Assembly (NCBI GenBank): GCA_965215185.1
Contig: OZ244034.1
Location: 2,176,001 to 2,240,000 of the forward strand
Source of the DNA: Acidimicrobiia bacterium
Lineage (GTDB): Bacteria; Actinomycetota; Acidimicrobiia; Spongiisociales; ZC4RG35
Direction of reading: 5' to 3'
Length of the DNA: 64,000 bases
In this document: in pieces, positions 6,394 to 42,700 of the stretch
Position numbering within the stretch: the first letter of the stretch is position 1
Layout: each line of letters starts with the position of its first letter
The notes under the pieces: generated by a model
Told to the model about the DNA's origin: nothing
Databases searched by the model: none
What the model saw: the letters and a program-made list of their open reading frames with translations, nothing else
Program-made: the position numbers and the translations under genes

Positions 6394-6546
6394 ATCGACC
6401 CCGTAGGAACACCGGGTTGGCCATAGCTTGTGAGCCCATACCCACAATGTGCAACATGGGTGCGACAAACACCGGGCAAGATCACTAAGTTGGCACATTT
6501 CGGCCCTCCACCCGCCGCCGTCTCTGCTTCGAGTCCCTAACCGATC

Positions 6547-7194: not shown

Positions 7195-7234
7195 CTTGAA
7201 ATTATCGCAACCGAGTCGACAGGGACTTGCGCCT

Positions 7235-27713: not shown

Positions 27714-28884
27714 GCTCGGTCACCCGGATGCGAGGATCGAGCGCCCCATAGAGCACATCCACCACGAAGTGCCCGATCAACGCCATTATGCCGATGAAGG
27801 AAAACGCCCCAACCGCTAGGGGAATGTCCTCACTCAACACCGAGGAGATCAAGATCTCACCCATGCCCGGCCAGGAGAACACCGCTTCGGTGATGACTCC
27901 ACCATCGATTACCGTGGCCACCGCCAAGACCAGGGAGGTGGTCACCGGCAGTAGAGCGGTCCGCGCCGCGTGGCGATCACGGATCACTCCCTCTGATAAG
28001 CCCTTGGCACGGGCAGTAAGGATGTAGTCCTCCCGCATAGTCTCCAGCATGGAACTGCGGGTCAAAAGCATCACTCCTGCAAAATTCAACAGGGCCAGGG
28101 TTGCCACCGGCAAGATCATGTGAAACCCGATATCCCCGGCATAGACTCGCATGTCCTGGCCCGACTGGGTCCCGAACCAGTAGAAGAAGAATCCGGCCAC
28201 CGCCAAGGCGATGCCCCCCCACCGCAGGGTCCGTTCCAACCGCCGACTATTGGTCCGATGCGCGGCGAAACTCGCCGCGAACATCGCAAGGGAAAAGATC
28301 AGAGTCACCCAGAAGAGGCGCATGAACACCTGATTGGCCGCGAACGGAGCATCCCGCCACTGCTCGGGATTAAGAAACTTGGAGATGGGCAGCAGATCCA
28401 ACTGGACACTGAAGAACCAGATCAGCATCAGGGCGAAAAACGGTAGGAAGGTTGTGTAGAGTCCCACCCCGGACACCGTGATCAACATCTCCCCTCGATT
28501 CCCCCGACGCCAGGCCAAATATTTGCCGGCCACAAACCCGGCCCAGTAGTAGGTAACCAGAGCGGTCAGAAACAGGACCAGGGTGCGAGGCAAACGCTCT
28601 GCGATGATCTCGGTAACCGGCCGCGGGTATTGATTGAAGGAAACCCCTAGATCCCCCTGGAAGAAGTTGACCATATAGTCCCGAAATTGGATCAGCACCG
28701 GCTTGTCCAGACCGAGTCGCTCCAGCGCCACTGCCCTGGCCTCGGGCGGGATGTTGGGGTTTCCTGCATATTTCAGCGCGACCGAATCGCCAGGAAGGAT
28801 GTAGAGCAGGAACCATGTCACCGTCAGGAAGACCAGAAACAGAAATATCATCTGGACCAGCCGTCGTATCAGATATCGGACCAC
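27706..28884 (-). CDS. oppB: Peptide ABC permease (OppB-like)
   Basis: Motifs GLDKP, GDLG.S, DYILTARAKGL, E.VFSWPGMG and LDPRIR. Confidence 0.92.
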   Translation of the reverse strand: MVRYLIRRLVQMIFLFLVFLTVTWFLLYILPGDSVALKYAGNPNIPPEARAVALERLGLDKPVLIQFRDYMVNFFQGDLGVSFNQYPRPVTEIIAERLPRTLVLFLTALVTYYWAGFVAGKYLAWRRGNRGEMLITVSGVGLYTTFLPFFALMLIWFFSVQLDLLPISKFLNPEQWRDAPFAANQVFMRLFWVTLIFSLAMFAASFAAHRTNSRRLERTLRWGGIALAVAGFFFYWFGTQSGQDMRVYAGDIGFHMILPVATLALLNFAGVMLLTRSSMLETMREDYILTARAKGLSEGVIRDRHAARTALLPVTTSLVLAVATVIDGGVITEAVFSWPGMGEILISSVLSEDIPLAVGAFSFIGIMALIGHFVVDVLYGALDPRIRVTEHG

Positions 28885-28922
28885 GTGTCTGCCCTTCTAA
28901 CTACCTGCATGTCTCCTTACAG

Positions 28923-28966
28923 GACCCGTGGGGAGCCGTCACTTATGACGACAGCTCCCCAGGGTC
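28923..28966 (-). promoter_or_regulatory. Intra-operon stem-loop after oppA (mRNA-stabilising or partial terminator)
   Basis: GACCCgTGGGGAGC-CGTCA-ctta-TGACG-aca-GCTCCCCAGGGTC. Confidence 0.6.
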
Positions 28967-28980
28967 ACATTGTGGTGGGA

Positions 28981-31035
28981 TCAGCCGATCGTGACCACTC
29001 CCGTCAACGCACCAAAGTTTTGCAAACCGTCGAGAATTGTGGTGTACGGGAAGGTGAGTTGATTCGAGTATGCCTCGATGAGGGGCGTGGTGAACAGCGT
29101 CACGTAAGGCAGATCCTCAGCGATCAAGGCGTCAGCCTGATGTATCAGATCACGCGCCTCTGCCAGCGTCTTGGCCCTGTCGAACTGATCGGCCAGTTCG
29201 TCGAAGGCGGGATTGGAATACCCGGGGGTATTGAACCCGCCTAACGCCGAGTCGGCGGAGGACCGGAAGAAGTCGAACACGTGGTCCGGGAACGGAGTGA
29301 GTCCCCACCCCAGGATGTACATGTCGAACCCGAGTGGGTCAGCCGGAGGGAACACCTTGTCCACGATCACCGAGAACCCGGTGGGTTCAGCAGAGAGCGG
29401 GATGCCCATATCGGTGGCCCACTCCTCGATGAACAGCGAGTAGGTGGCCCGCATCGGATCGTAACCGGGTCCTGGAGCGAGCAGGGTGAGCGGATCTATG
29501 CTCTCCCCGCCGGGGCCGCGCAAGCCTTCTCCCTTGGGGATCACGTCACGGTTGCCCTCGTCCCAGGCCGGCTCCACATCCCAGGTCCAGCCCGCATCCT
29601 TCAGGATCTGCACCGCTGACGCCACTCTTTCCTGAGTGCTCTGCTCGGCACAGGGGGCCGTCAGGTTGGGGTTGTACCAGTAGGCGTTGCCCGGCGGCAC
29701 CAGCGAGTTGATCGAGATGGCCGTGCCACCCAGCACCGTGTTGGCCATGAAGTCCTTGTCGATCAGGCAGGCCAGCGCTTGCCGGAAGGCGGTCTCGCTC
29801 ATCGGGAACTTACGGGTGTTGTAGGCCAGATAGCGGAAACCATTCTGCTCGTTGACCGCCACTTCGAGATTGGGCGCCGCCAAGATCTCGTTGCGCAGAC
29901 CGGATTGCAAACCGAGCGGGTTCAACAAGAAGTCGACTTCGCCCTCGGTCAGCGCCAGCACCGCGGCGTTCTGGTCCGTGTAGATGGAATAGATAGTCTC
30001 GGAGACGAACGGGCCTTCGGTGTAGTCAGCCACAACATCGCCGCCGGGCTCACCACCCCAGTTCTCGGTGACGCCGTCACTGGTGTACTCCACCGCTCCG
30101 GAACTGTAGACCGTGTACTGGCTGCCAGCGTCCCAGTAATCCCCTAAAGCCACATTGCGCCAAAAAGCACCTGGTTCCCATTCAGTGGAGTTGAAACCGG
30201 ATGCGTTGGGAGCGCCCAGCCCGGAGGCGGCGTAGAGAGTCTCGGGATCGTCGGACGAATCAACGATCGGTCCCCAGAAGGCCTGCTGGAAGATGGAAGC
30301 CAGACCCACTGACAGCGGCCAGATGGCCAGCCCCGGCTCGAAGTTGAAGCTAATCTTGACGGTCTGGTCGTCAAGTGCCTCCACGGAAGAGACACCCTGG
30401 GAGGACTCATCGTCCTCGGTGGCGGGATCGTCGTCACGTGCCAAAGGCCAGATGCTGGGGAAGTTGCCGCCCAGACCGTTGTACTTGGCGATGGTATTGA
30501 ACGTAAACACCGCGTCGTGGGCCGTGATTGGCGAGCCGTCCGACCACGTGACGCCCGAACGCAGGTTCACCGTGACCGAGTAACCGTCTCCGTCAGCTTC
30601 GACCTGAGGGGGACTGGCGTCAGCCGCTAGCGCCGGGACCACTGTGTAGGTCGGGCCCTGATAGGTGTAAAGCGAAATCTGGCCGGGAATCACGTAGGAG
30701 TTCCAGATATCGGCTTCGGTGTCAAGCGCCGCCCAGGGATTGTCGGTAGTGGGAGCGGAAAAGATACCGAGCCGGTAGGTGGCGCCCATCGGCATCTCCT
30801 CGTCCATGGCAGGCTCTTCCTCCTCGTCCATGGCAGGCTCTTCCTCCTCATCCATGGCAGGCTCTTCCTCCTCGTCCATGGCGTCCGGAGCCGCCGTCGT
30901 TTCAGGGGCGCCTGCCGAGGTGGTTTCCGGCGCGGGGGCGGCAGTGGTGGGCTGAGGAGCCTCCTCATCGTCCCCGCACGCCGCCACCACCAAAGCCAAC
31001 ACCGCGAACAAACATAGCAATCGTCGCATTCTCAT
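28981..31035 (-). CDS. oppA: Peptide ABC substrate-binding lipoprotein (family 5, OppA-like)
   Basis: AAAGGAG RBS, lipobox LVVAACG, LR.GV.WSDG.PITA.D..FT, FRQAL..IDK and N..GYSNP.FD. Confidence 0.92.
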   Translation of the reverse strand: MRMRRLLCLFAVLALVVAACGDDEEAPQPTTAAPAPETTSAGAPETTAAPDAMDEEEEPAMDEEEEPAMDEEEEPAMDEEMPMGATYRLGIFSAPTTDNPWAALDTEADIWNSYVIPGQISLYTYQGPTYTVVPALAADASPPQVEADGDGYSVTVNLRSGVTWSDGSPITAHDAVFTFNTIAKYNGLGGNFPSIWPLARDDDPATEDDESSQGVSSVEALDDQTVKISFNFEPGLAIWPLSVGLASIFQQAFWGPIVDSSDDPETLYAASGLGAPNASGFNSTEWEPGAFWRNVALGDYWDAGSQYTVYSSGAVEYTSDGVTENWGGEPGGDVVADYTEGPFVSETIYSIYTDQNAAVLALTEGEVDFLLNPLGLQSGLRNEILAAPNLEVAVNEQNGFRYLAYNTRKFPMSETAFRQALACLIDKDFMANTVLGGTAISINSLVPPGNAYWYNPNLTAPCAEQSTQERVASAVQILKDAGWTWDVEPAWDEGNRDVIPKGEGLRGPGGESIDPLTLLAPGPGYDPMRATYSLFIEEWATDMGIPLSAEPTGFSVIVDKVFPPADPLGFDMYILGWGLTPFPDHVFDFFRSSADSALGGFNTPGYSNPAFDELADQFDRAKTLAEARDLIHQADALIAEDLPYVTLFTTPLIEAYSNQLTFPYTTILDGLQNFGALTGVVTIG
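30797..30882 (-). repeat. 24-bp in-frame tandem repeat, about 3.5 copies, encoding AMDEEEEP
   Basis: AGGCTCTTCCTCCTC(G/A)TCCATGGC at 30811, 30835 and 30859, plus a partial copy. Confidence 0.9.
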
Positions 31036-31788
31036 CGCCGTCTCCTTTCTAGTCTCTGTAAATCTTTTGCCTATGGCAAAGATACCCTGCTGTAGGGACA
31101 AATAGAGTTTGAAACGCCCTTCGTTTGATAGGGAGAATTTCGCAACCGGTAAGGCTGGGTAAGCCGATCCACTCCGGACCGCCAGCCGACCCGTCCCGCA
31201 GTGACACCTGACCTTCCCCCTAAGGTCAATAAGTTCGTCAAAACACCCACTCGAACAGGTTTGACTTCTACCCTCTCCTTCGCTTCATACTGGGATTGCA
31301 GGACAAGAACCTGCGGCCTTGTTCCGAGCTCCCCAGCCCGCAGAATCCTGAAGTCAAACCGGCGAAGCCACATTGAGCCGCAACCGTGTTTCGCGACTCC
31401 ACACCTGGACTGTTGGTGGTGGGGGTGGGTTCCCAAGGGGTGGGTTCCCAAGCGGTGGAGAAACCCGGCACTTCCCGGGAGTTGGTTATGTCTTTTTTTC
31501 TAGCAAAGACACGTGAACTAAGAATTAGTAAACACTGGATGAGAGACTGGATATTTCAACCTGCCTAAGGAGATCCCAGCCCTCAGGGGTACGTTCTACG
31601 CATCAGATGCCTTTACCTTCCCCGTTGTGACACCGCCTCGCCAGTGGTGGCGCATTGGGCTGTTCAGCCATCCCCCCTTTGGGTGCGACCCGGCTGAAGC
31701 GATGGGCATCGCTCTCAACAAAAAAAAGCACATCCGAAGCTGTTAAGGTCATGATCGAGATGGCCGATACCAACAGGAGGAGCATCTG

Positions 31789-32784
31789 ATGGCCCGTATG
31801 TATTTCGAGGAGGATTCCGACCTAACGTATCTGGCTGGTCAGACCATCTGCATCGTAGGGTATGGCAACCAGGGTCGGTCTCAGGCACTCAACATGCGGG
31901 ACAGCGGACTTGGTGTCATTGTGGGGAGCCGTCGGGATGCGTCATACCAGACGGCGCTACAGGATGGCTTAGCGGTGTTTCCGGTTGACGAAGCGGTAGC
32001 GCGTTCCGATGTCATCTTCCTTCTCGTCCCCGACGAGGTGATGCCCCAAGTCTTCGAGCAGGATATCGCCCCGAACCTGGATTCGGGCAACATGTTGGTT
32101 TTCGCCAGCGGCTACAACATCACTTTCGGCCTTATCAAGGCCCCCTCCGACGTAGACGTGGTTTTGATCGCCCCTCGAATGATCGGCGCAGGAGTCAGGG
32201 ACACCTTTTTGAGCGGTGAGGGCTTCCCTAGTCTCATTGCCGTTCACCACTCCGCCACCGAGACGGCATTCGAGCGGATGCTGGCACTTTGCGAAGGGAT
32301 CGGATCCACAAAGATGGGGGTGATCGAATCCAGTTTCCTCGAGGAGACGACAGTAGATCTATTCGCGGAGCAGGTGGGTTTTCTCTACGCGGTGCGCCGT
32401 TACTGCGAAGTGCTGGTGGAGGCCGGGTGCAGTCCCGAGGCGGTCATGCTGGAATTCTATGCCTCGGGGGAGGGCATCGAGACCGCCAAGGCATATCGTG
32501 ACATCGGGCTTTGGGACCAGATTACGCTACATTCCCGTACCAGCCAGTACGGGCAGGAAGTGACCAGCATGCTCTCTCCCGAGGAGGAGGAAACCGAGCG
32601 GGCCAGGCTGAGAGGGATCATCTCCCATATCCAAGACGGTTCTTTCGCCCGGGAGTGGACAGGGGAACAGCAGGCTGGATTCCCGGAGTTCAACCGGGCG
32701 AGGGCACTGAACATGGCCCATGAAATGCGAGCCTCGGAAAGAAAACTTTACAAGGTGCTGGGACGGATACCGGACAACGACTAA
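31789..32784 (+). CDS. ilvC: Ketol-acid reductoisomerase-like protein (divergent IlvC homolog)
   Basis: AGGAGG RBS; motifs GYGNQG.SQALN.RDSG, L.PDE, APRM.G..VR, EET..DLF.EQ, S.T.QYG and IQDGSFAREW. Confidence 0.8.
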   Translation: MARMYFEEDSDLTYLAGQTICIVGYGNQGRSQALNMRDSGLGVIVGSRRDASYQTALQDGLAVFPVDEAVARSDVIFLLVPDEVMPQVFEQDIAPNLDSGNMLVFASGYNITFGLIKAPSDVDVVLIAPRMIGAGVRDTFLSGEGFPSLIAVHHSATETAFERMLALCEGIGSTKMGVIESSFLEETTVDLFAEQVGFLYAVRRYCEVLVEAGCSPEAVMLEFYASGEGIETAKAYRDIGLWDQITLHSRTSQYGQEVTSMLSPEEEETERARLRGIISHIQDGSFAREWTGEQQAGFPEFNRARALNMAHEMRASERKLYKVLGRIPDND

Positions 32785-33662
32785 GACAACCCTGTCCAAC
32801 CTCCGGAGGGGCGGTCGAACCAGACGTGCACCTGCCCGGTGCCTGTCGCGTTCTCGTAGTCGGAGAATTGCCGACCCGGCGCCGAGCACTTCTCTCCACC
32901 GACCGACGCCACCATAGCAAGGTAATGGCCGAACCCGGCCTCCGGCTCATGGGGCAGATAATCGGGCATGGCCCTGATGATCCTGGCATGGTCTCCCGAC
33001 GCCATCCACTCCAGTCGCACCTCGTCGGCGGCTCGGGCCTGCGGAGTAAAAATGTGAATCGGATCGGAAGCCTCGTGCTCGACCAATTGGCGCAACGGCC
33101 AGAAATGATGGGTCATACCCCCCGAAGCCAGCACCACCACCCGGCGGTCCACTGAAGCCACCGCTTCACCAACAGCTTCTCCCAGCTGCAGGAAGTCGTC
33201 GGTTTCTCCGGTTTGGACCATGCTCACCGACATCACCCGTTCACTGCGGCACAGGTAGTGGACCAGGTTGATGGTCCCGTAGTGGACCGGCAGGTACGGA
33301 TCGCAGATGGGAGTTCCCTGCACCCCCCGGCCGGTAATCGCCTGGGCTGCCGCTTCGGCCAATTCCGGGTCCCCGCGGTAGTCGTAGGGAAGCTGGGAGA
33401 TGCCGCGGGGAAGTTCCTCGGAGGTGTATTTGCCGCTGCGACGCTCGTGCGAGGAAAATACGTGTTCCACCGTGGTGTGCCAATGGGTGTCGAAGATCAC
33501 GATCGTGTCCGCAGCAAGGACATCCAGCACCTCGGTGCGCAGCCTTCTCAGCCCGGGCACCAGACTGATTTCCTTGCCCTCATTCAACTGGTAACGCACC
33601 TCGCGGGAAAGCATCACCGTCGGCGAGTGGGATATCAATCCCACTCCAACGATCTCACCCAT
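32781..33662 (-). CDS. LigB-fold extradiol ring-cleavage dioxygenase (HpaD-like)
   Basis: Motifs SH.PT, FDTHW, YTSEELP, HYGT.N, ASGGM.H.FWP, YEN..GTGQ and WFD.P. Confidence 0.85.
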   Translation of the reverse strand: MGEIVGVGLISHSPTVMLSREVRYQLNEGKEISLVPGLRRLRTEVLDVLAADTIVIFDTHWHTTVEHVFSSHERRSGKYTSEELPRGISQLPYDYRGDPELAEAAAQAITGRGVQGTPICDPYLPVHYGTINLVHYLCRSERVMSVSMVQTGETDDFLQLGEAVGEAVASVDRRVVVLASGGMTHHFWPLRQLVEHEASDPIHIFTPQARAADEVRLEWMASGDHARIIRAMPDYLPHEPEAGFGHYLAMVASVGGEKCSAPGRQFSDYENATGTGQVHVWFDRPSGGWTGLS

Positions 33663-35130
33663 GGTCCTTCTCCTCTCTCCAGCCTCGGGGACCGAGAACC
33701 GTGTTATTCAGATCACTGTAGAAGTCAAAACTCCAGGCGCCCCCCTCTCGGCCGATCCCCGAATGGCGGCTTCCGCCGAAGGGGGCTCGAAGGTCTCGCA
33801 CATAGAAGCAATTGATCCAGGTCGTCCCGGAAACGATCTGTGCCGCAAGCCGCTCGGCCCGGCCGGGATCACCGGTGACCACTGCCGCCGCCAAACCGAA
33901 CCGGGTGGAATTGGCCATCTCCACTACCTGCGAATCCGTGCGGAACGCCTGCAGGGTGAGCACCGGACCGAACACCTCCTCGGTGAGGATCTCCGAGCCG
34001 GGGGTGGCGTCCACAAATAGTGTGGGCCGATAGTACAGGCCACCCAGATCCCGGTTCGGGCCTCCTCCCAGCACCGCCCGCGCCCCGTTCCCGGTCGCTC
34101 GACGGACATAGCCATCCACCCGCTCCAGGTGCGGCCGGGAAATGAGCGGACCCAAATCGGTGTCGCCCAAACGGGGATCGCCCTGCACCAAAGCACCCGC
34201 TTTCTCCAAAAACCCTTCCAGGAAATCGTCGAGGATCCGCTCTTGAACGAGAAGCCGAGTGGCCGCCAGGCAGACCTGTCCGGCGTTGTCGTACTGTTCC
34301 ACCGCCATGCAGATCGCCATGTCCAGATCAGCATCTTCCAATATCACCAGTGGGGATTTTCCTCCCAACTCCAAGCTGAACGGCACCAGGTTGGCGCCCG
34401 CCACCCCGCCGATCAGCCGAGCGGTCTCCACCGAACCGGTGAAACTGATCCTGGCCACCTCCGGGTTGGAAACCAATGCCGCGCCGGCTTCCTCCCCATA
34501 CCCTTGCACGACGTTGAACACCCCCGCTGGAAGACCGGCCTCCTCGGTTATCTCGGCCAGAAGCGAGGCGGTGAGCGGTGACCATTCGGCCGGTTTGAGC
34601 ACCACGGTATTACCGGCCGCCAAGGCCGGCGCCGTCTTCCAGGTGGCCAGCATCAGCGGAGCGTTCCAGGGTGTGATCAACACCGTCACTCCCGAAGGTT
34701 GATGGGACACCCGGTTGCGGTGACCGCGGGTGTCGAACTCAGGATGGCCCAATTCCAAGAGGTTATCGGCAAAGAACCGGAAATTGTGCGCCGACCGGGG
34801 CATCAGGCCCGCCAAGTTGGACCGAAGCAACGATCCATTGTCTACCGTCTCCACCGCCGCAAGTTCCTCTGTCCGCCTGTCGATCCCCTCAGCAATCCGA
34901 TACAGAATCTCCGCCCGCTCCCGCCGGGAGGTGCGGCCCCACACAGAGAATGCCTCGGTGGCGGCTGACACCGCGGCCGAGGCTTCGGCTTCTCCACCCC
35001 GGGCGGGGGAAGCCATGTGGGACTCGTCGATGGGGGAAAGGTCGGGAAAGGTGTGGGCGGAGGGAACTCTTCTGCCTCCTATCCAATGGTCGAGGGCCAC
35101 CTCCACCCCCGCCACCATGGCGGTTCTCAT
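33655..35130 (-). CDS. Aldehyde dehydrogenase, hydroxymuconic semialdehyde (HpaE-like) type
   Basis: Motifs ITPWNAP, KPAEWSP, FTGS, ELGGKSP, GQVCLA, EEVFGPV and VRDLRAPFGG...SGIGREG. Confidence 0.9.
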   Translation of the reverse strand: MRTAMVAGVEVALDHWIGGRRVPSAHTFPDLSPIDESHMASPARGGEAEASAAVSAATEAFSVWGRTSRRERAEILYRIAEGIDRRTEELAAVETVDNGSLLRSNLAGLMPRSAHNFRFFADNLLELGHPEFDTRGHRNRVSHQPSGVTVLITPWNAPLMLATWKTAPALAAGNTVVLKPAEWSPLTASLLAEITEEAGLPAGVFNVVQGYGEEAGAALVSNPEVARISFTGSVETARLIGGVAGANLVPFSLELGGKSPLVILEDADLDMAICMAVEQYDNAGQVCLAATRLLVQERILDDFLEGFLEKAGALVQGDPRLGDTDLGPLISRPHLERVDGYVRRATGNGARAVLGGGPNRDLGGLYYRPTLFVDATPGSEILTEEVFGPVLTLQAFRTDSQVVEMANSTRFGLAAAVVTGDPGRAERLAAQIVSGTTWINCFYVRDLRAPFGGSRHSGIGREGGAWSFDFYSDLNNTVLGPRGWREEKDHG

Positions 35131-35146
35131 CTACACCCCGTAGCCC

Positions 35147-36337
35147 TCAAAACGAGATAGCCCTTGCCGCCTCCAGAGAGGAGCGGACTTCCTCTCCCGC
35201 GGTTTCCAAGGCGCGCTGTTCTTCCTCGGAGAGAGTCATCTCCACTACCTCGATCAATCCGCCCTTGCCCAACAAAGCGGGGACGCCCAGCACCATCCCC
35301 TCCATTCCATATTCGCCCTCCAATAACACCGAGACCGGTATCGCCCCGGCTCTTTGGCCTCGCAGACCGTCCAGCACTTCGCAGATCGCATGCCCAGGCG
35401 CGAGATACGCCGATCCAGTCCGGCGGAGCGAAACCACCGCCCCTCCACCGCCCACCGTGCCCTCCACGCACCGTTGGATCTGTTCGGTAGAGAGGACCCT
35501 TTGCACCGGACGTCCTTTGATGGTGGCCCTCGATAGCACCGGCACCATCTGGGGACCGTGGCGTCCCAGACAGAAGGCTTGAACATCTTTGGGGGAAACC
35601 CCCGCTTCGCGAGCCAGCAGATAACGGAATCGACTGGAGTCGAGCGTCCCGGCCATCCCCAGCACCTGCCGGCGTGGGAATCCCGAAGCAGAAAGCGCCT
35701 CATAGGTCATCTCATCCAGCGGATTGGTCACCACCACAATCACTGCGTCGGGAGCATGAGCCGCCACCTCCTCGGCCACCGAGCGAACCACCCTCCCGTT
35801 GATGGATATCAACCCCGCCCGGTCCATCCCCGGGGACCGTGGACGCCCGGCGGTGATCACCACCACCTCGGCGCCGGTAAGCAATCCTGATTCCGAACCG
35901 CCCGTCACCCTCACCGAAGAGCCGGTGATCCCCGAGGTGTGCTCCACATCGAGCGCCACCGAGGCGGCCAGCCCGGCTACCACATCCATCAAAGTGATCT
36001 CGGAGGCCATGTCGGAAGCGGCAGCCAGATGTGCCACCGTGGTGCCCACGTTTCCAGCTCCCACCACCGCCAGGCGGGCCAAACGCCGGGGTCGCCCTAC
36101 CGGGGGATCAGGCGCCATCCAGCGGGGGGAGCTTCTGTAGAGCACGCGCCGGATGGCAGTGGCCGGATCGGCGGCCCGCGGCTCGGGGACTGGTAGAGGG
36201 CCCTCCACCAGTTCTAGGCCGAGCGTCCCGATCGTTTCCCGGGCCTGGGGGGTGATGATGTCCCCGGGGAGAAAAACGATTTGGCGGCGTCCCTTCTTTG
36301 CTTCCTCCCGAACCTGGTACTCGCCGATTACTGTCAT
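35147..36337 (-). CDS. mdh: LDH-like malate dehydrogenase with an N-terminal extension of about 85 aa
   Basis: Motifs VGAGNVG, TAG.PRSPGMDR, VTNPLD, GMAGTLDSSRF and GSAY.AP. Start set at ATG 36337, 8 nt after the BMC-T stop. Confidence 0.88.
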   Translation of the reverse strand: MTVIGEYQVREEAKKGRRQIVFLPGDIITPQARETIGTLGLELVEGPLPVPEPRAADPATAIRRVLYRSSPRWMAPDPPVGRPRRLARLAVVGAGNVGTTVAHLAAASDMASEITLMDVVAGLAASVALDVEHTSGITGSSVRVTGGSESGLLTGAEVVVITAGRPRSPGMDRAGLISINGRVVRSVAEEVAAHAPDAVIVVVTNPLDEMTYEALSASGFPRRQVLGMAGTLDSSRFRYLLAREAGVSPKDVQAFCLGRHGPQMVPVLSRATIKGRPVQRVLSTEQIQRCVEGTVGGGGAVVSLRRTGSAYLAPGHAICEVLDGLRGQRAGAIPVSVLLEGEYGMEGMVLGVPALLGKGGLIEVVEMTLSEEEQRALETAGEEVRSSLEAARAISF

Positions 36338-36345
36338 AATCCCGG

Positions 36346-36969
36346 CTAGCGACCCTCTACCGCCTCCACCGCCTCCACCGCCGCATCCAAGGCGGTGACC
36401 ACGTTCTCTTCGGATCCACTGATGAACAGCCGCCCGTATCGCCCAACAGCTCTTACCTGCACCATGCTGATCAGCGCCGCCTTTTCCGCAGTGTTGGCGC
36501 CGATGGCAATATAGGCCGCCGGAGCGCACTCCAAGATGCCCAACGTCTCCCCTGGCACGACCATGCTGCCCCGCCGCCACTTGTTGAGCAACTGTGCCTG
36601 ATATGGTTCCACCGAGTTAATACGCTGGACGCTCTCGATTTGGGGCTTTATACGGTCATAGAGCGACATCCCCAAGTAACCGAGAATGCTCTCCCGGGCG
36701 ACGGTGATCTCCGACGGAACTCGGGAGCGGAGAATAAAAAACCCGAACTCTCGCTCTACGATCTGGCTGGTGGCTTCCACCGAGGAAGCTTTGAGGGCCA
36801 CGTCCACCAATCGGAACACCTCGTTACCCGGCGCCATTTCCCCCACCAGCACCGAATCGCCAGCCAGAGGAATCGATCCCTGCACGGTGGCCCCGTTGTA
36901 GGCCGCGAATTTGGGCTGTAGCCCGTCCAACTGGAAAAATGCCCGGATGGTCAGGGAGTTGTTGTTCAT
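36346..36969 (-). CDS. BMC shell tandem-domain protein (BMC-T, CsoS1D/CcmP-like double-stacking type)
   Basis: Motifs LD.LQP.FAAY, E.APG, D.ALKA, VEREFG, YQAQL.N..RRGSM..PG, LE..PAAY, AN.AEKAA and G..GRLF.SG. ATGA overlap with the upstream gene. Confidence 0.9.
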   Translation of the reverse strand: MNNNSLTIRAFFQLDGLQPKFAAYNGATVQGSIPLAGDSVLVGEMAPGNEVFRLVDVALKASSVEATSQIVEREFGFFILRSRVPSEITVARESILGYLGMSLYDRIKPQIESVQRINSVEPYQAQLLNKWRRGSMVVPGETLGILECAPAAYIAIGANTAEKAALISMVQVRAVGRYGRLFISGSEENVVTALDAAVEAVEAVEGR

Positions 36970-38351
36970 CCGGACCTGCCGAACTCGTCCCACAGGCCTC
37001 GCCAGGGACGGTTCTGATAGGCAATCCGCTTTATGTTGATCAGGTGCAGGGCAGTTATGTTGTCCGAGGATATCGAACCCGACCAGGTGCCGGTGCCCAG
37101 CATGAAACTCGGCTCCAGATCCACCGAGTACCCCATACCTCCGTACAGACAAGGGGTGTTGACCAGGATGCGACCGGCGGGCAGCCTCCCGAATTCCGCC
37201 ACATCATCGGCATCATGGGAGTGAATCGCCAGCGTGTGCCCTATCCCCCCGAAGTTGAGGACCTCTTCGCACCTGCGGTAGCCGGCCGCCCGATCGGCCA
37301 CCACATAGAAGGCCAGCACCGGATTCAGTTTCTCGTGGGAGAGCGGATGTTCGCGACCCACCGCATCCAGTTCCGCCAGCAAGACTCGGGTGCGGGGCGG
37401 TGTGTCGAACCCGGCCAGTTGAGCCAGGCGAGCCGCCGACTGTCCCACCGTGGAAGGGATGATGCTCCCCCGCTGCCCAAAGATCACCCGTCCCAAACGG
37501 GCTGTCTCTTGGGGGGTGCAGAAATATCCGCCCGCCAGCCGCATTTCGTTGCGCAGGGCGGGCGCTATTTGCCGATGGGCGACTATGGCCTGCTCGGCGA
37601 CACAGGCGGTGCCATAGTCGAAGGACTTGGAGTTGATAATCTGCTCGGCCACTTCGTCCAATTCGTTGACCATAGAGGGACCCACGTACACGGGCACATT
37701 ACCAGGCCCCACCGCCAGAGTGGGCTTTCCTGATGAGTAGGCGGCTCTCACCATGGCGGTCCCACCCGTTGCCATCACCACCGATGTCCGCCGGTGACGC
37801 ATCAACTCTCCGCTCCCCTCCAAAGTCACCTCGGTGAGACAACTGATCAAACCCTTGGGCGCCCCGGCCGCCTCGGCCGCCTCGGCCATGATGCGGGCCG
37901 TCTCCGCACAACACCGCACCGCGCGGGGATGGGGGGCGCACACGATGGCGTTCCCGGCTTTGACCGCCGACAGCACTTTGAAGATCACAGTGGAAGTGGG
38001 GTTGGTGACCGGAATCAGGGCGGCCACCACCCCCATCGGTTCGCCCACTGCCATCACCTTGGTGGCCTGGTCATGCCACAGCACCCCCACACAGCGGACA
38101 TTGCGCAGCCATTCCCACACCCCAAGGGCGTTGAAGAGATTCTTGTACAGTTTGTCCTCGGCGTTGCCGTACTCGGTCTCGACGGCGGCCATCTCTCCCA
38201 ATCGGCCGCATTCGGGCTCGATGGCCACCACCATCGCCTCCACGATCCGGTCGATGGTCTCCTGTGATGTGCCCCGGAATTTGTCAAAGGCCGCCCGGGC
38301 GGCGGTCACCGTCTGGCGAGCCTGGGCGATGCTGCGAAGATCTGCATCCAT
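36966..38351 (-). CDS. CoA-acylating aldehyde dehydrogenase (EutE/PduP/AdhE-N class)
   Basis: Motifs D.DL.SI..AR, P.GVVA.LIP.TNPTST, PHPRA, ATGG..MV.AAYSSGKP...VGPGN, SK.FD.GT.C..EQ, EKL.P, GHT..IH and G.GTW.G. Confidence 0.92.
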   Translation of the reverse strand: MDADLRSIAQARQTVTAARAAFDKFRGTSQETIDRIVEAMVVAIEPECGRLGEMAAVETEYGNAEDKLYKNLFNALGVWEWLRNVRCVGVLWHDQATKVMAVGEPMGVVAALIPVTNPTSTVIFKVLSAVKAGNAIVCAPHPRAVRCCAETARIMAEAAEAAGAPKGLISCLTEVTLEGSGELMRHRRTSVVMATGGTAMVRAAYSSGKPTLAVGPGNVPVYVGPSMVNELDEVAEQIINSKSFDYGTACVAEQAIVAHRQIAPALRNEMRLAGGYFCTPQETARLGRVIFGQRGSIIPSTVGQSAARLAQLAGFDTPPRTRVLLAELDAVGREHPLSHEKLNPVLAFYVVADRAAGYRRCEEVLNFGGIGHTLAIHSHDADDVAEFGRLPAGRILVNTPCLYGGMGYSVDLEPSFMLGTGTWSGSISSDNITALHLINIKRIAYQNRPWRGLWDEFGRSG

Positions 38352-38353
38352 GT

Positions 38354-39484
38354 CTATTCCGCTCTTCCCACCGCTCGGCGCACCGCGTCGAGATCGGCGT
38401 TGGCCCACCCCAAAGCCTCCAAGCGACGACCTTCCGCCCACAGGTCGCGCCCACACATGGCCGACACCACAGTCACCACTGAAGAGGTAACCGGCACGGG
38501 AACAGAAGCCATGGCCGCGGCTGAGCAGAGTGCCACCAGCGATCCCGCCGTCCCGTCCAATACCAGACCACTGAGCGTCTCCTTATCGGAGCCCGGTCTT
38601 GTATCACCAACCGGGGCAAGCGGGGTGCGCACCCCCCAGCGGGCGGCCACCGCCGCTCTTTCTTCCCCAAGCGCCCCCAGGAGGGATTCCATTTGCGGGG
38701 AAGGAACCGCCGGGTGGGGAAGGGGAGTGGCGCCGGGCAGTAGCTCTCTGGGTGTTTGGCGGGCGATAGGTCCGTCCAGTATCCCCGCGGGGACCACCGA
38801 CCAGGAACTCTCCGTAAGACTGGTGTGCAGCACGGTCGGCAAGAGTTTCATGGCCGGGAAGTAAGCGGCCAAAGACTCCCTCACGCCTTGGCCCCGGTCA
38901 GCCGGGTAGGCGGCCAAGGCTGCTTCCGAAGTGGATTCTGCCCATTGCAACCGCCCGGTTCCCACGGCCGCCACCGAAAACGGGCAGGCTTGCAACTCGA
39001 TCAGGGTTATCCCTTCAGATGCCCCGCCCGCCCTGAGCCACCAAGCCATCTCTAGAGCGCCGAAGGTTCGACCGGGTGAGATCGCCACCATCTGTCCCTC
39101 GTCCAGCAGTCCCGCCAACCGCATTCCCACCGCCCGCTGGTCGGTGAGCGACCCCACCACCACCACTAGATCCGCGCCAGCCACGGCTTGGTCGATCCAG
39201 GGAACGGGGCGGATGGCGTGTTCGGCATCGGGGTCCACCCGGTAGTTTCCCACCGGACCCCCGCCGCGTACCGAAATACCAGAGGTGGCCACCCGGGCGG
39301 CTTCCTCCCCTCTGGCCACCCACCAGCGAACCTGGGCGCCCCCGGCTAAGAATCCGGCCGCAAAAGCCCACGCCTGAAGACCTGATCCCAACACCGTCAC
39401 CTGGCCCCAGTGAGGGGCGGGAACCCGATGTTCGGAAGTAGATTCGCTCAGGGCGGCGACGACTGCCTCGAAGTCAGACAACAC
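38354..39484 (-). CDS. NAD/NADP octopine/nopaline (opine) dehydrogenase-like protein, divergent
   Basis: Rossmann-like VTVLGSG, then AVAGADLVVV, L..GQ...I.PG.TFGA, ER.AVA..WG, VPVP.T.SVV...S and D....GR.LE.LG. Confidence 0.7.
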   Translation of the reverse strand: MLSDFEAVVAALSESTSEHRVPAPHWGQVTVLGSGLQAWAFAAGFLAGGAQVRWWVARGEEAARVATSGISVRGGGPVGNYRVDPDAEHAIRPVPWIDQAVAGADLVVVVGSLTDQRAVGMRLAGLLDEGQMVAISPGRTFGALEMAWWLRAGGASEGITLIELQACPFSVAAVGTGRLQWAESTSEAALAAYPADRGQGVRESLAAYFPAMKLLPTVLHTSLTESSWSVVPAGILDGPIARQTPRELLPGATPLPHPAVPSPQMESLLGALGEERAAVAARWGVRTPLAPVGDTRPGSDKETLSGLVLDGTAGSLVALCSAAAMASVPVPVTSSVVTVVSAMCGRDLWAEGRRLEALGWANADLDAVRRAVGRAE

Positions 39485-39501
39485 TCAATTCCGATTGCAG
39501 T

Positions 39502-39786
39502 CTAGGACCTTCCGCCGAGTTGTGGGAGCATTTCGACCCCCGCATCGGGGCGGGCGATCACATGCACTGCGACTACTTCGCCAACCTTGTTGGCGGCGAC
39601 GGCTCCAGCATCGGTGGCGGCCTTGACCGCCCCTACTTCTCCTCGAACGAAGACCGTCACCAAGCCTCCTCCGATCTTTTCCAGTGCCACCAAATCGACA
39701 TTGGCCGATTTCAACATGGCGTCTGCGGCTTCCACCGAGGCAACCATGCCCCGGGTCTCGATCATGCCTAAAGCTATTTTGTCCAA
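39502..39786 (-). CDS. BMC hexameric shell protein (BMC-H, EutM/PduA/CcmK-like)
   Basis: Motif ALGMIETRG...[12 protein letters not shown]...[21 protein letters not shown]...HVIARP. AAGGAG RBS. Confidence 0.97.
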
Positions 39787-39850
39787 GGTCTCTCTCCTTA
39801 GTGTTTGGCTATTGGCGGGACCCTTTCGGGTCCCGGTTTCGGTCTTTCAT

Positions 39851-40111
39851 TTACTTGGGAATCTGCACTTCGTCAACAATCATCACCGCCGCCGCGTCAG
39901 TGGGAAGACCCCGAAGCGACACAGCCTGACGGGCCGCTGAGCCCTCCGCGACCAAAACCAACTCCCCGACCCCGGCCCCCACCGCGTCGGCCACCACAGT
40001 GTCTTTTCCGCCCTCCTCGTCAATCGGCGCCACCAGCAGCAGGGTCACTCCCTGTAGCCCGGGATCTTTGATGGTCCCGGTCACCTTCCCTCTGACCCTG
40101 CACAGGCGCAT
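39851..40111 (-). CDS. BMC pentameric vertex protein (BMC-P, EutN/CcmL)
   Basis: Motif M.L.RV.G.V..T.K...L.G..LLLV...VAD.VGAG.GE.VLV..GSAAR...PTDA....IVD. Confidence 0.97.
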   Translation of the reverse strand: MRLCRVRGKVTGTIKDPGLQGVTLLLVAPIDEEGGKDTVVADAVGAGVGELVLVAEGSAARQAVSLRGLPTDAAAVMIVDEVQIPK

Positions 40112-40114
40112 GGC

Positions 40115-41428
40115 TCAGAATGCTTCCAGATAACGGTCCCGCTCCAACTGCGTAACCGTGTCGCGCCACCCATCCGGATCCGACTCCACCATGAAGTTGT
40201 GCTCACGCTCGGCCTGCTGGGCAAGGGTGAGGCGCAGCTCCTCGGAAAGAACCTCGGCAATCAACTCGGATTTGGAGAACAACTCCAAAGCGGTAGGAAT
40301 GTCGGTGGGAAGAGCCTGGTGACGAGAGGCGGCATAACCGTCGCTCACCTCTTTATCGGTGGGCTGGGCGCCGGTGGCCATGCCCTTCAAACCCGACGCC
40401 AACTGCACGGCGGTCAAAAGGTAAGGGTTGGCGTCCGAGGAACCGTCCCGCTGCTCGATGCGCACCGCCGAGTCGCTGCCCCCCTCAATCACCCTCAATC
40501 CCACCGTGCGGTTGTCCCCGCCCCAGGCGTTGCTGGTTGGACAGAAGGTGTACCCCTGACGACGTTTCATGGAGTTAGGGGTGGGGGCGGAAATCAACGC
40601 CGTCTCCGCCATGTGCTGCTGCAGCCCTCCCAGATAGGAACGTCCCAGCGCCGAGAGACGGCCCCCGTCGGCAAAGACGTTCTTTCCGTCTTTCCACAAT
40701 GACTGGTGGAGATGGAAACTGTTGCCGGACTCCCCGAAGAAGGGCTTCGCCATGAATGAGGCCAGCATTCCGTGGTTATAGGCGATCTCTTTGACCGAGT
40801 TTCGGAACAACATGGCGTTGTCGGCCGAGGTGAGGGCTTCCCCGTAGCGGAGGTTTATCTCGATCTGCCCGGGGGCGTATTCGGGATTGGACATCTCCAC
40901 TTGGATACCCATTTCGCTGCAGAGATTGCGGATCGGCCCCACCACATGCTCGAACATCGCTCCCCGCGCCAACCCGTATACAGAGATTCCCGAGTCCACC
41001 AGCTGCTTGGTCTCCAGATCAAGCAGGTAGAACTCGAACTCCACTCCGGTCTTTACCTCGTAACCCTGGTCCGCGGCCTTGGTGACCTGCTCCACCAACA
41101 CATTGCGGGGATCGCAGCATACTGGGCTGCCGTCTATCTCCTCCGCACGTCCCAACACCAGCACCACCCCCTCCTCCCAGGGAACCGGCCTCATGGTTTC
41201 CAGCATCGGAATGATGTGGACATCGGCGTAGCCGTTCGCAAAATTCGCATAGGGGGTATCCCAGATGTCGTTAGTCACGTCCATCTGAAAAATGGCGTTG
41301 CACATTCCAACGCCATGCTTGAATTCTTCCCAAACCCCAGCCTGAACCCGCTTGCCCCGGGCGATGGCGTTCAAGTCCCCTAGTGCCAAAACTACCGTGT
41401 GAGTGCCTTCCGGCAACGACTGCGCCAC
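40115..41428 (-). CDS. Glutamine synthetase-family gamma-glutamyl-amine ligase (PuuA/GlnA-like)
   Basis: Motifs D.N...RGK, DPRNVL, E.EFYL, EYAPGQ.EIN, FMAKP, H.HQSLW, NS.KR, WG.DNRT..LR, RIE.R and ANPYL. Confidence 0.9.
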   Translation of the reverse strand: MAQSLPEGTHTVVLALGDLNAIARGKRVQAGVWEEFKHGVGMCNAIFQMDVTNDIWDTPYANFANGYADVHIIPMLETMRPVPWEEGVVLVLGRAEEIDGSPVCCDPRNVLVEQVTKAADQGYEVKTGVEFEFYLLDLETKQLVDSGISVYGLARGAMFEHVVGPIRNLCSEMGIQVEMSNPEYAPGQIEINLRYGEALTSADNAMLFRNSVKEIAYNHGMLASFMAKPFFGESGNSFHLHQSLWKDGKNVFADGGRLSALGRSYLGGLQQHMAETALISAPTPNSMKRRQGYTFCPTSNAWGGDNRTVGLRVIEGGSDSAVRIEQRDGSSDANPYLLTAVQLASGLKGMATGAQPTDKEVSDGYAASRHQALPTDIPTALELFSKSELIAEVLSEELRLTLAQQAEREHNFMVESDPDGWRDTVTQLERDRYLEAF

Positions 41429-41527
41429 GGGATTCTCCTCTCTGTACCGTACTCTGATTCTTGTGGTCGGCTTAGCTGCTTTGCCCTTACTCCTAGCAGA
41501 AGCGGCGGTATAACATCATAGTGGAAG

Positions 41528-42700
41528 ATGTCCCGATCCCGGGTTGGAGGAACAACTTTGAGTAGAGCCAGGGAGGCAGTGGTGGTAGGCGCGGGGATCG
41601 CCGGTGCCATGACCGCCCTGCATCTGCGCCGCGCCGGGCTTTCGGTGCGTCTGGTCGACGCGTGGGATCCCGGCCATGCCCGAGCCGCTTCCGCCGGGAC
41701 CCATCGGCTGATTCGCTCCACCCATGGAACCGATGAGTTGTACACCCTGTGGAGTCGGGAAGCCCGCTTGCGTTGGATGGAGCTGTCTCAACACGTCGGC
41801 CGGCGTTTCTACTACGAATCGGGAGTGGTGATCCTGGCCGCGGAGGGGCACTCGAAATGGGAGGACGCCACCCAGGTCACCCTATCGAAACTGGGGATAC
41901 CCTTTTTCGTCGTTCCCCCCCGAGAGCTTCCCACCCGGCTGCCGGTGGTCAACCCACGGGGGATAGCCTATGGGTTGTGGGAGCCCGAGGCAGGCTTCAT
42001 CCTCTCCAGAGACGCCCTGGTAGCGACGGTGCAGTTGTTTTGCGCCGAGGGCGGGGAGTTGGTCCGAGGCAGGGCGCAGACCAATGAGAACGAATGGCCG
42101 ACCCTCAATGGAAAGCCCATCCGGGCCGACCTGGTGGTTATGGCATGTGGGGCTTGGATGGGCAGCCTTTTCCCCCGCACCCTGGGCAGGATCCTGTCGA
42201 TCGTCCGCCAGGATGTAATCCTCGTCTCCCCACCGGTTGGTGACACCCGCTACGACTGGGAGAACATGCCGGGCTGGATAGATCACGGCTATCCCGCCTA
42301 TGGCGTGCCTGCCGTGAATGGCCACGGCTTCAAGGCGGCTTTTGCCTGGCATCACGGCATGATGGACATCGACCGCTCCGATCGAGTCACCGATCCCTCC
42401 ACCGTGGCGCGCTGTCGTCGCTATCTGGCCACTCGCTTTCCGGAGTTAGCGGATTCGGTGATAACCGACCAGAAGGTATGCCAGATAGTCAACACCCCCG
42501 ACCGCCACTTCATCATCGACCGCCATCCCGACCATGAGAATCTGGTGCTGGTCACGGGAGGATCGGGACATCTCTACAAGCACGGGCCGGTGTTGGGAGA
42601 ATTCGTAGCGGACTTTTCCTTGGGTCGGCATGGAACCAACCAGCGTTTTCGCCTAGACCGCCCTCGCACCGCTTCATCAGCCATTGACGATCCCCAGTAA
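41528..42700 (+). CDS. FAD-dependent oxidoreductase, monomeric sarcosine oxidase / SolA family
   Basis: Motifs VVGAGIAG, S.G.HRLIR, GAW, C...NTPDRHFIID.HP and GGSGH.YK.GPV.GE. Confidence 0.88.
   Translation: MSRSRVGGTTLSRAREAVVVGAGIAGAMTALHLRRAGLSVRLVDAWDPGHARAASAGTHRLIRSTHGTDELYTLWSREARLRWMELSQHVGRRFYYESGVVILAAEGHSKWEDATQVTLSKLGIPFFVVPPRELPTRLPVVNPRGIAYGLWEPEAGFILSRDALVATVQLFCAEGGELVRGRAQTNENEWPTLNGKPIRADLVVMACGAWMGSLFPRTLGRILSIVRQDVILVSPPVGDTRYDWENMPGWIDHGYPAYGVPAVNGHGFKAAFAWHHGMMDIDRSDRVTDPSTVARCRRYLATRFPELADSVITDQKVCQIVNTPDRHFIIDRHPDHENLVLVTGGSGHLYKHGPVLGEFVADFSLGRHGTNQRFRLDRPRTASSAIDDPQ

Follow-up and report, generated by a model that had tools for sequence, protein, structure and literature searches.

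A bacterial microcompartment locus in one order of Acidimicrobiia: a candidate metabolosome for amines carried on glutamate

Metabolosomes, one kind of bacterial microcompartment (BMC), are sorted into types according to their aldehyde-forming enzyme, and the amine-degrading types known so far use a B12 lyase (EUT) or a kinase together with a phospholyase (RMM). The latter, known from Rhodococcus and Mycobacterium, serves the catabolism of amino alcohols and has an acylating aldehyde dehydrogenase (AldDH). Here we report on a BMC locus from a member of the class Acidimicrobiia (Actinomycetota), situated in a stretch of 64,000 nucleotides (hereafter the window; positions 2,176,001 to 2,240,000 of contig OZ244034.1, assembly GCA_965215185.1), whose enzymes differ from those of the described types. 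Two further systems bear comparison with it. The ARO type has, in the excerpts of the sources available, two PF02900 subunits, one pentameric (BMC-P) and two hexameric (BMC-H) shell proteins, no trimeric shell protein (BMC-T) and an AldDh that is not CoA-dependent (PMC10470539; PMC8217296). For a Gma-MgsABC cluster of Mycobacterium, a role in methylamine oxidation through the N-methylglutamate pathway has been proposed (PMC5023230). The main text of the 2021 BMC catalogue mentions neither glutamine synthetase (GS) nor malate dehydrogenase (MDH) nor their Pfam numbers (PMC8217296), and full-text searches found no literature description of a BMC with the enzymes reported below or of a BMC in Acidimicrobiia. 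The locus type may already lie within the MIC or MUF bin of that catalogue, as it is set apart by the catalogue's main text only.

The ten genes in question (window positions 32781-42700; hereafter the island) encode a BMC-H, a BMC-T and a BMC-P, a CoA-acylating AldDH, a GS-like ligase, a protein similar to opine dehydrogenases (opine DHs) and an N-terminally extended MDH, together with a LigB-family dioxygenase and a non-acylating aldehyde dehydrogenase (ALDH) at one end and a divergent flavin oxidase at the other. This is a genuine protein-shelled organelle locus, confined to one order of Acidimicrobiia as far as sampled. With moderate confidence we further read the island as one half of a two-part amine-catabolic metabolosome, in which the intermediates would be bound to glutamate, a EutE-like AldDH would be enclosed by the shell, and MDH would recycle NAD+. 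What the sequences show directly is the gene content and its synteny, the co-occurrence of genes, the changes of residues and the clade of the AldDHs; the chemistry at each step, the nature of the amine and the set of enclosed proteins are inferred.

An initial annotation, made from the sequence of the window, had recognised a full shell kit next to an acylating AldDH. Genome-wide searches agree with this: the hexamer and the tandem trimer (both PF00936) and the pentamer (PF03319) are the only shell proteins of the 3.12-Mb single-contig genome, one of each, and all lie in the island, which is therefore the sole shell locus. The BMC-H of the window carries the edge motif ARPD and the pore motif GGGL, against PRPH and GGGY in EUT-type relatives. 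Throughout the locus type the pore reads GGGL and the edge ARPD, ARPH, PRPS or PRPA; only the BMC-H of one genome (G021; genomes and loci are cited by G and L numbers) keeps PRPH, which EUT-type relatives combine with GGGY or GGGF. As far as such motifs tell, the differences may reflect a different permeability.

The AldDH is assigned to the CoA-acylating enzymes by its TIGR02518 match (Table 1) and by its nearest solved relatives, PDB 5j78 (E=4e-126) and 3k9d (E=6e-115), which are both acetylating acetaldehyde dehydrogenases; its sequence contains a Cys in the motif GTACVAEQ, which we take to be the catalytic-Cys motif of acylating AldDHs. In a tree of 27 AldDHs, of the kind that the initial annotation had suggested building, the 12 sequences from this locus type form one clade (support 98/97), which is sister (85/91) to AldDHs from Chloroflexia and from other classes of Actinomycetota, EUT-type ones among them. 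One of these sister loci (G776) is by its Pfam content a classical EUT locus, with EutH, EutA, EutB, EutQ, an adenosyltransferase and an EutJ-like gene. The absence of the classic signature enzymes, likewise remarked on at the outset, extends beyond the island in the case of EutB (PF06751), which has no match in the 3.12-Mb genome (the control search found it in E. coli), and of PduL, treated below; profile searches revealed no B12 enzyme, glycyl radical enzyme, aldolase or aminotransferase among the ten island proteins. Nor is there an alcohol dehydrogenase among them (Pfam), an N-extended MDH being present instead; of the pair that recycles CoA and NAD+ in metabolosomes, PduL is missing from the genome and the alcohol dehydrogenase from the island.

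The locus type occurs in 19 genomes from three families of one Acidimicrobiia order. Nine belong to the genus of the window genome and four (G019, G021, G120, G215) to the same family; G025, G036, G173, G255 and G320 represent a second family and G185 a third, the loci of G019 and G185 being partial on contigs of 3-4 kb. These tallies span 41 relatives, two of which (the unpublished G027 and G038) are counted only as genomes without the locus and bear on none of the conclusions. The constant set comprises the genes for the GS-like ligase, BMC-P (unscored by the filter in L023 and L075), BMC-H, AldDH, BMC-T, the extended MDH and the opine-DH-like protein, so that the conserved synteny which the initial annotation had proposed to look for does recur. 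Colinearity from the GS-like to the MDH gene is kept in all eight same-genus loci (with BMC-P unscored in L023, and L024 ending inside the GS-like gene) and also in other genera and families; given this, the arrangement is not due to chance. Within the genus, 9 of 17 genomes (this one included) have the AldDH orthologue, at 89-92% identity over the long open reading frame (ORF) and 90-93% over the corrected 461 aa. Three genus mates that lack the BMC (G003, G011, G012) have dnaB directly beside ilvC, and the stretch from the oxidase to LigB is therefore a single presence/absence block of ~10 kb. Near-identical island sequence was found in sequencing runs of 10 studies, and the locus is thus present across a range of samples.

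Beyond these relatives, samples of 401 genomes each of the class and of the phylum were surveyed for the AldDH. Sequences at least 47% identical that come with this locus type were found in this order only (13 genomes of the class sample). None of the seven loci fetched, out of 15 other matches in the phylum (a tally that includes the unpublished G585, whose locus is not among the seven), contains GS-like, extended MDH, opine-DH-like or Mgs genes. These seven, from other classes of Actinomycetota (AldDH 44-49% identical), and several loci from Chloroflexia (49-50% in three, 43% in L033) were considered as candidate members and rejected as other BMC types, both sets being devoid of the same four kinds of gene. 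In other orders of Acidimicrobiia, five loci (L077-L080 and L032, from G156, G351, G394, G252 and a Microthrix metagenome-assembled genome) have a different AldDH, 38-40% identical, which in G252 and Microthrix stands with two BMC-T and one BMC-H; as they lack GS-like, extended MDH, opine-DH-like and Mgs genes, they represent a second BMC type in the class.

In each of the 18 loci that extend far enough, the GS-like gene stands beside the shell genes. We read its product, by similarity, as a gamma-glutamyl-amine synthetase: it scores 216 bits with TIGR03105 (cut-off 470) and 191 bits, again below the cut-off, with the gamma-glutamylputrescine synthetase model, its nearest solved structure is 5dm3 (181 bits), and the GmaS entries 7cql and 9qur follow at ~130 bits. 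There is no Glu at the place aligned to the Glu-flap glutamate, presumably a motif of true GS. Since the protein is probably not a GmaS orthologue, the amine need not be methylamine. Directly upstream of this gene, six genomes (G025, G036, G021, G255, G173, G320) carry a trio that encodes a class-II amidotransferase (GATase), a GXGXG protein (PF01493) and an FMN-binding glutamate-synthase-domain protein (PF01645), here called MgsABC-like; in G215 and G120 the trio lies 1.4 kb and 4.2 kb from the core. The loci of G025, G021, G255 and G215 further contain an APC permease and a conserved 197-aa protein that matches neither Pfam nor NCBIfam (an Atlas suggestion of DUF3156, score 0.96, is a lead only). 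In the window genome the permease, the trio and the 197-aa protein form one cluster (C1:1758488-1763747) at a distance of ~445 kb from the island. An orthologue of the FMN subunit, MgsC, at 91% identity or more, is present in nine of nine BMC-bearing genomes of the genus and in one of the eight without BMC.

The gene order GATase-GXGXG-FMN-GS is identical to that on a Methylobacterium plasmid, where the GS is annotated as type III (glnT) and an aldehyde-activating protein comes next. The 12 plasmid homologues listed for MgsC, those of Paracoccus, Methylobacterium and Aminobacter among them, share 52-58% identity with it, and the MgsA amidotransferase is 35% identical to its Methylobacterium counterpart. 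At the level of homology and gene order alone, then, the loci possess the three-subunit synthase next to a GS-like ligase that characterises the N-methylglutamate pathway. The genes mgdABCD were not found in the fetched loci, as judged by homology to the window oxidase only; a family search for SoxD matched nothing anywhere, its control included, and is hence uninformative. On the Aminobacter plasmids, opine-DH homologues do not adjoin the mgs genes. The flanks of L011, L012 and L014 hold no further conserved enzyme, and a GntR/FCD regulator is present in L012 and L014.

Other genes of the window genome may be mentioned beside this cluster. Downstream of the permease-Mgs satellite lie five more genes on the same strand (L063:8783-14718, i.e. 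G000:C1:1763783-1769718), for an S-adenosylmethionine (SAM) methyltransferase, a FAS1-dehydratase-like protein, an acetyl-CoA-synthetase-like AMP-binding protein, a Gfo/Idh/MocA oxidoreductase and a short-chain dehydrogenase/reductase (SDR). A GCV_T domain occurs in three ORFs of 818-871 aa (G000:C1:2083388-2084203, 2087388-2088197 and 315856-316686), and these look by their size like enzymes of the dimethylglycine/sarcosine-dehydrogenase type, which hints at the use of methylated amines.

The opine-DH-like protein exists in two forms. Type A (G025, G036, G173, G255, G320 and G021; ~438 aa) matches PDB 1bg6 (CENDH) over its full length (E=4e-63) as well as PF02317 (7e-32), and keeps the residues aligned to His202 and Asp297 of 1bg6, which we take to be catalytic (the numbering was checked). 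Type B (this genus, G215 and G120; 375-390 aa) remains below the Pfam threshold, is without a segment of ~15-25 residues found in type A and 1bg6, and has Val, Glu or Ser at the position of His202 and Gly or Ala at that of Asp297. In the window protein these residues are Val and Gly, and no Pfam family matches above threshold (PF02317 E=0.064); by domain and residues, type A conforms to the opine dehydrogenase family and the window protein does not. Type B is, to judge from these replacements, probably not a working opine dehydrogenase, and the window protein is unlikely to be a working recycler of NAD(H), because the catalytic His and Asp are replaced. Its dN/dS of 0.14 (against five genus loci) indicates purifying selection and therefore that type B is not a pseudogene; a non-catalytic role is possible, and the protein is perhaps kept as a cargo or adaptor. 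Every opine-DH-like protein starts with a short amphipathic helix and, next to it, a linker rich in Pro, Ser and Ala, which in the AlphaFold2 model of type B appear as a helix at residues 2-13 and disorder to residue 27, with low predicted local distance difference test (pLDDT) values. All type-A proteins (for example those encoded at L011:12692-14002, L012:6289-7602 and L014:10663-11985) end in a conserved Cys-rich tail, GG-R/K-C-x-ESGVCR-x-FGFY, that is missing from 1bg6 and type B. An apparent fusion of opine DH and AldDH in G021 (an open frame of 940 aa) was rejected, as the two lie in different frames with a stop between them.

The divergent oxidase shows modest similarity to PDB 1el5 (E=1.3e-31, 113 bits). 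Its C318, R63 and K351 align to Cys315, Arg52 and Lys348 of monomeric sarcosine oxidase (MSOX) and are invariant in 10 of 10 orthologues; presumably Cys315 binds FAD covalently and Arg52 and Lys348 bind the carboxylate, so that the residues typical of the family are in place. An orthologue is absent from all five genus mates without BMC that were tested, where there is only a paralogue of 30-34% identity, and present, again divergent from the GS-like gene, in G215 and G120. The three genera with type B (this genus, G215 and G120) are exactly those with the oxidase, and the six type-A loci are without it, a pattern consistent with a flavin oxidase having taken over C-N cleavage from an NAD-linked enzyme. 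A complex prediction for the oxidase and the type-B protein gave a median of 0.31 against a mark of 0.32, which speaks neither for nor against binding. The initial annotation had supposed that the compartment handles an aldehyde released from an N-substituted amine or amino acid, and this supposition is strengthened by the Mgs-like trio, by the permease in four loci and by the conserved MSOX residues.

The extended MDH is found in exactly the nine genus genomes that have the AldDH and in none of the eight others, and each of the 17 also possesses another MDH, at 26-30% identity. Five aligned positions, which we take to be the catalytic set of LDH/MDH enzymes, are invariably occupied by Arg, Arg, Asp, Arg and His. 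The extension is kept in the genus, in G025 and in G036, the G021 row being unaligned over it. AlphaFold2 predicts for residues 1-45 a small beta-alpha-beta-alpha-beta domain (pLDDT 85-94) and for residues 49-81 disorder, within which a conserved helix spans 58-68; the overall confidence of the MDH and opine-DH-like models is low (pLDDT 63 and 58). Searches with the N-terminal module matched no Pfam family up to E=10 and no sequence in the PDB, and a word-limited search of a collection of 5.8 billion sequences found the extension in only 19 protein clusters, all of them MDH-like. Amphipathic helices with linkers thus occur at three places, namely at the N-terminus of the opine-DH-like protein, at residues 58-68 of MDH and at the C-terminus of the G021 AldDH, where the helix resembles the other two; AlphaFold2 confidence for the helices is low, and their likeness to known encapsulation peptides is putative. 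Of the earlier suggestion that MDH or the opine DH recycles NAD(H) inside the compartment, the part concerning MDH, with its encapsulation-peptide-like helix, can be retained, and the part concerning the opine-DH-like protein, which in this genus is without the catalytic His and Asp, is unlikely to hold here.

Put together, the following pathway would account for the conserved set. Outside the shell, the APC permease would import a primary amine, the GS-like ligase would join it to glutamate to give a gamma-glutamyl amide, and the MgsABC-like trio would move the amine to the alpha-nitrogen of glutamate, yielding an N-substituted (N-alkyl) glutamate. Inside the shell, oxidative C-N cleavage would release glutamate and a small, toxic aldehyde that the shell would retain, the EutE-like AldDH would turn the latter into acyl-CoA, and the peptide-tagged MDH would reoxidise NADH by reducing oxaloacetate to malate, a part that falls to alcohol dehydrogenase in classical metabolosomes. 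The ancestral type-A form would rely on its peptide-tagged opine-DH-like dehydrogenase for the cleavage; in the window lineage a sarcosine-oxidase-like flavoenzyme would have been added, and the opine-DH-like protein would have lost its catalytic pair and been retained. A more far-reaching version, which we put forward tentatively and regard as less likely than not, makes the locus type a new functional class of organelle for amines carried on glutamate: NAD-dependent cleavage by the opine-DH-like enzyme within the shell would give formaldehyde or acetaldehyde, malate and oxaloacetate would shuttle between the encapsulated and the cytosolic MDH, and the dehydrogenase of the window lineage would have become a conserved pseudoenzyme after recruitment of the flavin oxidase.

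A number of points weigh against this pathway. Known opine dehydrogenases take the hydride from the carboxyl-bearing carbon, so that an N-alkylglutamate would give 2-oxoglutarate and the amine, and no aldehyde; we know of no precedent for an aldehyde-forming reaction in this family, and the glutamate-forming saccharopine dehydrogenase, the only comparable enzyme known to us, belongs to a different one. Type A moreover has Asn at the position of Arg292 of 1bg6. The gain of the oxidase and the loss of His and Asp are probably one evolutionary event and not three. The oxidase has no visible end resembling an encapsulation peptide, and this genus may therefore make the aldehyde outside the shell; its AldDH has no clear encapsulation peptide either. 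The phosphotransacylase PduL (PF06130) is absent from the genome (the control search found it in E. coli and Thermotoga), which leaves CoA recycling unexplained. The GS-like protein falls under every NCBIfam cut-off and is only 29% identical to the GmaS-type glnT of the Methylobacterium plasmid, and G011, which has no BMC, keeps an MgsC of 91% identity (C10:2439265-2440659), the sole exception to the co-occurrence. Selection and expression count in favour of the reading, though with caution. The dN/dS values of 0.05-0.14 for all ten island genes, from comparison with five genus loci, are rough because dS (~0.6-1.0, about 0.9) is near saturation. Two metatranscriptome runs of one study contain contigs 98-99% identical to pieces of eight island genes (MDH, BMC-T, AldDH, the opine-DH-like gene, BMC-H, BMC-P/GS, GS and the oxidase), one of 825 nt spanning from the opine-DH-like gene into BMC-H (39004-39828) and another crossing the BMC-P/GS junction (40027-40274); parts of the island without such contigs are not informative, and as RNA libraries can contain DNA, we regard the contigs as a weak hint of transcription.

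The same genes could be explained differently. The GS-like ligase and the trio could form a GS/GOGAT-style module of nitrogen assimilation, which acts on ammonia only or is merely co-regulated with the shell genes, while the true signature enzyme is encoded elsewhere or is one of the uncharacterised proteins; the island would then be a metabolosome with an incomplete core. We think this unlikely. The trio does correspond by homology to the three domains found in the large subunit of glutamate synthase, and the GS-like protein reaches the cut-off of no specific amine-ligase model. In the available part of the BMC catalogue, moreover, many AldDH loci have no obvious signature enzyme, and a core gene can lie on a satellite locus (PMC8217296). 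Against this, the genome has elsewhere another GS homologue and a full-length glutamate-synthase-like ORF, the presumed Glu-flap glutamate is missing, in eight other genomes the Mgs, permease and GS-like genes accompany the shell genes, within the genus they co-occur with the island, and the flanks of three loci offer no other conserved enzyme gene. It is quite improbable, too, that the compartment degrades opine-type N-(carboxyalkyl) amino acids, from which the opine-DH-like enzyme or the oxidase would free a keto acid or glyoxylate for AldDH and MDH. This would suit the full-length similarity of type A to CENDH with its two residues kept, and the Arg that MDH retains at a position which presumably favours dicarboxylic keto acids. 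Flavin enzymes related to sarcosine oxidase catabolise opines according to the available excerpt of one report (PMC4575208), and on that basis the replacement of the dehydrogenase by the oxidase would be explained. However, this reading leaves the most constant neighbours, the GS-like ligase and the Mgs trio, without a function; as a rule, cleavage of an opine gives a keto acid and not an aldehyde for a EutE-like AldDH, and genus mates that lack the island have the adjacent peptide/opine-type ABC transporter (24566-31101) as well.

The initial annotation had counted the LigB dioxygenase and the HpaE-like ALDH as an aromatic part of the compartment, and one may suppose an ARO-like function in this genus, in which an aromatic amine (such as tyramine, dopamine or an aminophenol) is gamma-glutamylated and oxidised to an arylacetaldehyde, the AldDH converts the latter, and LigB and the ALDH cleave the ring product. 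The two genes are co-directional with the operon, 16 nt away from it, and lost together with it; a LigB of 65% identity recurs beside the oxidase in a second genus (G120); and the nearest solved relatives of LigB are homoprotocatechuate dioxygenase and beta subunits of 2-aminophenol dioxygenase (8iq8 with 82 bits; ARO-type AmnB, 7txy_B, with 55 bits). Apart from the G120 copy, however, both genes are restricted to this genus and stand outside the conserved core: they are absent from all six type-A loci and from G215, and other DNA lies between them and the MDH gene in L028 (~3 kb) and L027 (~7 kb). Both proteins score far below the HpaD and HpaE cut-offs, the island has no other gene of an Hpa or Amn pathway, the AldDH is of the acetaldehyde type, and the features given for ARO in the available excerpts (PMC10470539; PMC8217296) are not those of the island. 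An aromatic function is accordingly highly unlikely, and the claim is not upheld: LigB, the ALDH and the oxidase are lineage-specific additions, the first two later additions with no assigned link to the pathway. In L024 the HpaE-like ALDH was matched as two overlapping pieces (5807-7287), which may be a frameshift.

ORF listing and profile searches find the ten genes where the initial annotation had placed them and agree with its description of nine closely spaced minus-strand genes, two overlaps and a divergent oxidase gene (Table 1). With corrected starts, the intergenic gaps of the nine co-directional genes are 2-64 nt; LigB and the ALDH overlap by 8 nt and BMC-T and AldDH by 4 nt, and 99 nt separate the oxidase from the start of the GS-like gene. 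Three ORFs had over-long starts. That of MDH (477 aa as listed) was over-extended, two orthologues having a stop three codons upstream of the corrected start; that of BMC-T was set from the extent of the CcmP match (residues 68-268 of the long ORF); and the AldDH was fixed at 461 aa because its orthologues have no open frame upstream. Beyond LigB follow ilvC (KARI) and an Opp-type ABC transporter, and beyond the oxidase dnaB, a PASTA kinase, a penicillin-binding protein and FtsW/RodA. The convergent 3' ends of ilvC and LigB overlap by 4 nt (32781-32784), and the island therefore abuts a housekeeping gene without a spacer.

Table 1. Genes of the island, with window coordinates and the matches on which their assignment is based
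Feature	Coordinates	Strand	Evidence
LigB-family extradiol dioxygenase	32781-33662	-	PF02900 2.8e-25; HpaD_Fe model 135 bits, cut-off 316
Non-acylating NAD(P) ALDH, HpaE / hydroxymuconic-semialdehyde-DH-like	33655-35130	-	PF00171 1e-147; HpaE best NCBIfam, 496 bits, cut-off 638
LDH-like MDH with 85-residue N-terminal extension	35147-36337	-	PF00056, PF02866; NF004863 330 bits, above cut-off
BMC-T, tandem-domain, CcmP/CsoS1D-like	36346-36969	-	NF053796 (CcmP) 1e-58, below cut-off; PF00936 8.3e-07
CoA-acylating AldDH, EutE / type I, 461 aa	36966-38351	-	TIGR02518 500 bits, below 620 cut-off
Opine-DH-like protein, type B, 376 aa	38354-39484	-	phmmer to PDB 1bg6 (CENDH) E=8.5e-17
BMC-H hexamer protein	39502-39786	-	PF00936 1.6e-27
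BMC-P pentamer (vertex) protein	39851-40111	-	PF03319 4.1e-25
GS-like ligase, first operon gene	40115-41428	-	PF00120 5.8e-83
FAD amine oxidase of the DAO / monomeric sarcosine oxidase / N-methyltryptophan oxidase family	41528-42700	+	PF01266 1.1e-43; NF008425 192 bits, cut-off 257

If the preferred reading of an amine-catabolic metabolosome with glutamate-bound intermediates is true, gamma-glutamylation followed by a complex like N-methylglutamate synthase would be a new chemistry for such organelles and a route independent of B12. It would also give a testable role to the widespread and poorly understood GATase/GXGXG/FMN/GS cassettes outside methylotrophs. A minimal shell of three genes with a cofactor recycling based on dicarboxylates would possibly be useful for engineering.

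Among the known systems, the N-methylglutamate pathway (gmaS-mgsABC-mgdABCD) shares with these loci the gene order seen on the Methylobacterium plasmid, and its cassette is known from Actinobacteria according to the available part of one source (PMC5023230); here, in contrast, the GS-like protein is probably not a GmaS orthologue, no mgdABCD genes were found beside it by homology to the window oxidase, and the cassette comes with a shell, an acylating AldDH and an MDH, a combination for which we found no counterpart in the literature. The ARO loci of Micromonosporales and Pseudonocardiales are likewise actinobacterial and have a PF02900 dioxygenase and a non-acylating, semialdehyde-type ALDH beside shell genes, whereas the island has one LigB, one BMC-H, a BMC-T and a EutE-like AldDH, with LigB and the ALDH lying outside the conserved core. 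With RMM it has in common that both are actinobacterial, amine-degrading metabolosomes with an acylating AldDH, but there is neither a class-III aminotransferase/phospholyase nor an APH-type kinase among the ten island proteins (Pfam). The closest likeness is to the actinobacterial, EUT2-like form of EUT: the AldDH is of the same TIGR02518/EutE kind and belongs to a sister clade, the shell kit of BMC-H, CcmP-like BMC-T and BMC-P is the same, with BMC-H proteins 67-70% identical, and both systems are amine-catabolic and would end in acyl-CoA. The EutBC lyase that defines EUT is nevertheless lacking here, as EutB (like PduL) is absent from the genome and EutC, together with EutA, EutQ, EutJ and the adenosyltransferase, from the ten island proteins; instead there are the GS-like ligase, the Mgs trio, the opine-DH-like protein and the MDH, and the pore and edge motifs of BMC-H differ. 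We therefore rate the locus as neither ARO nor EUT nor RMM, but as a metabolosome in which both the signature module and the enzyme for cofactor recycling are new.

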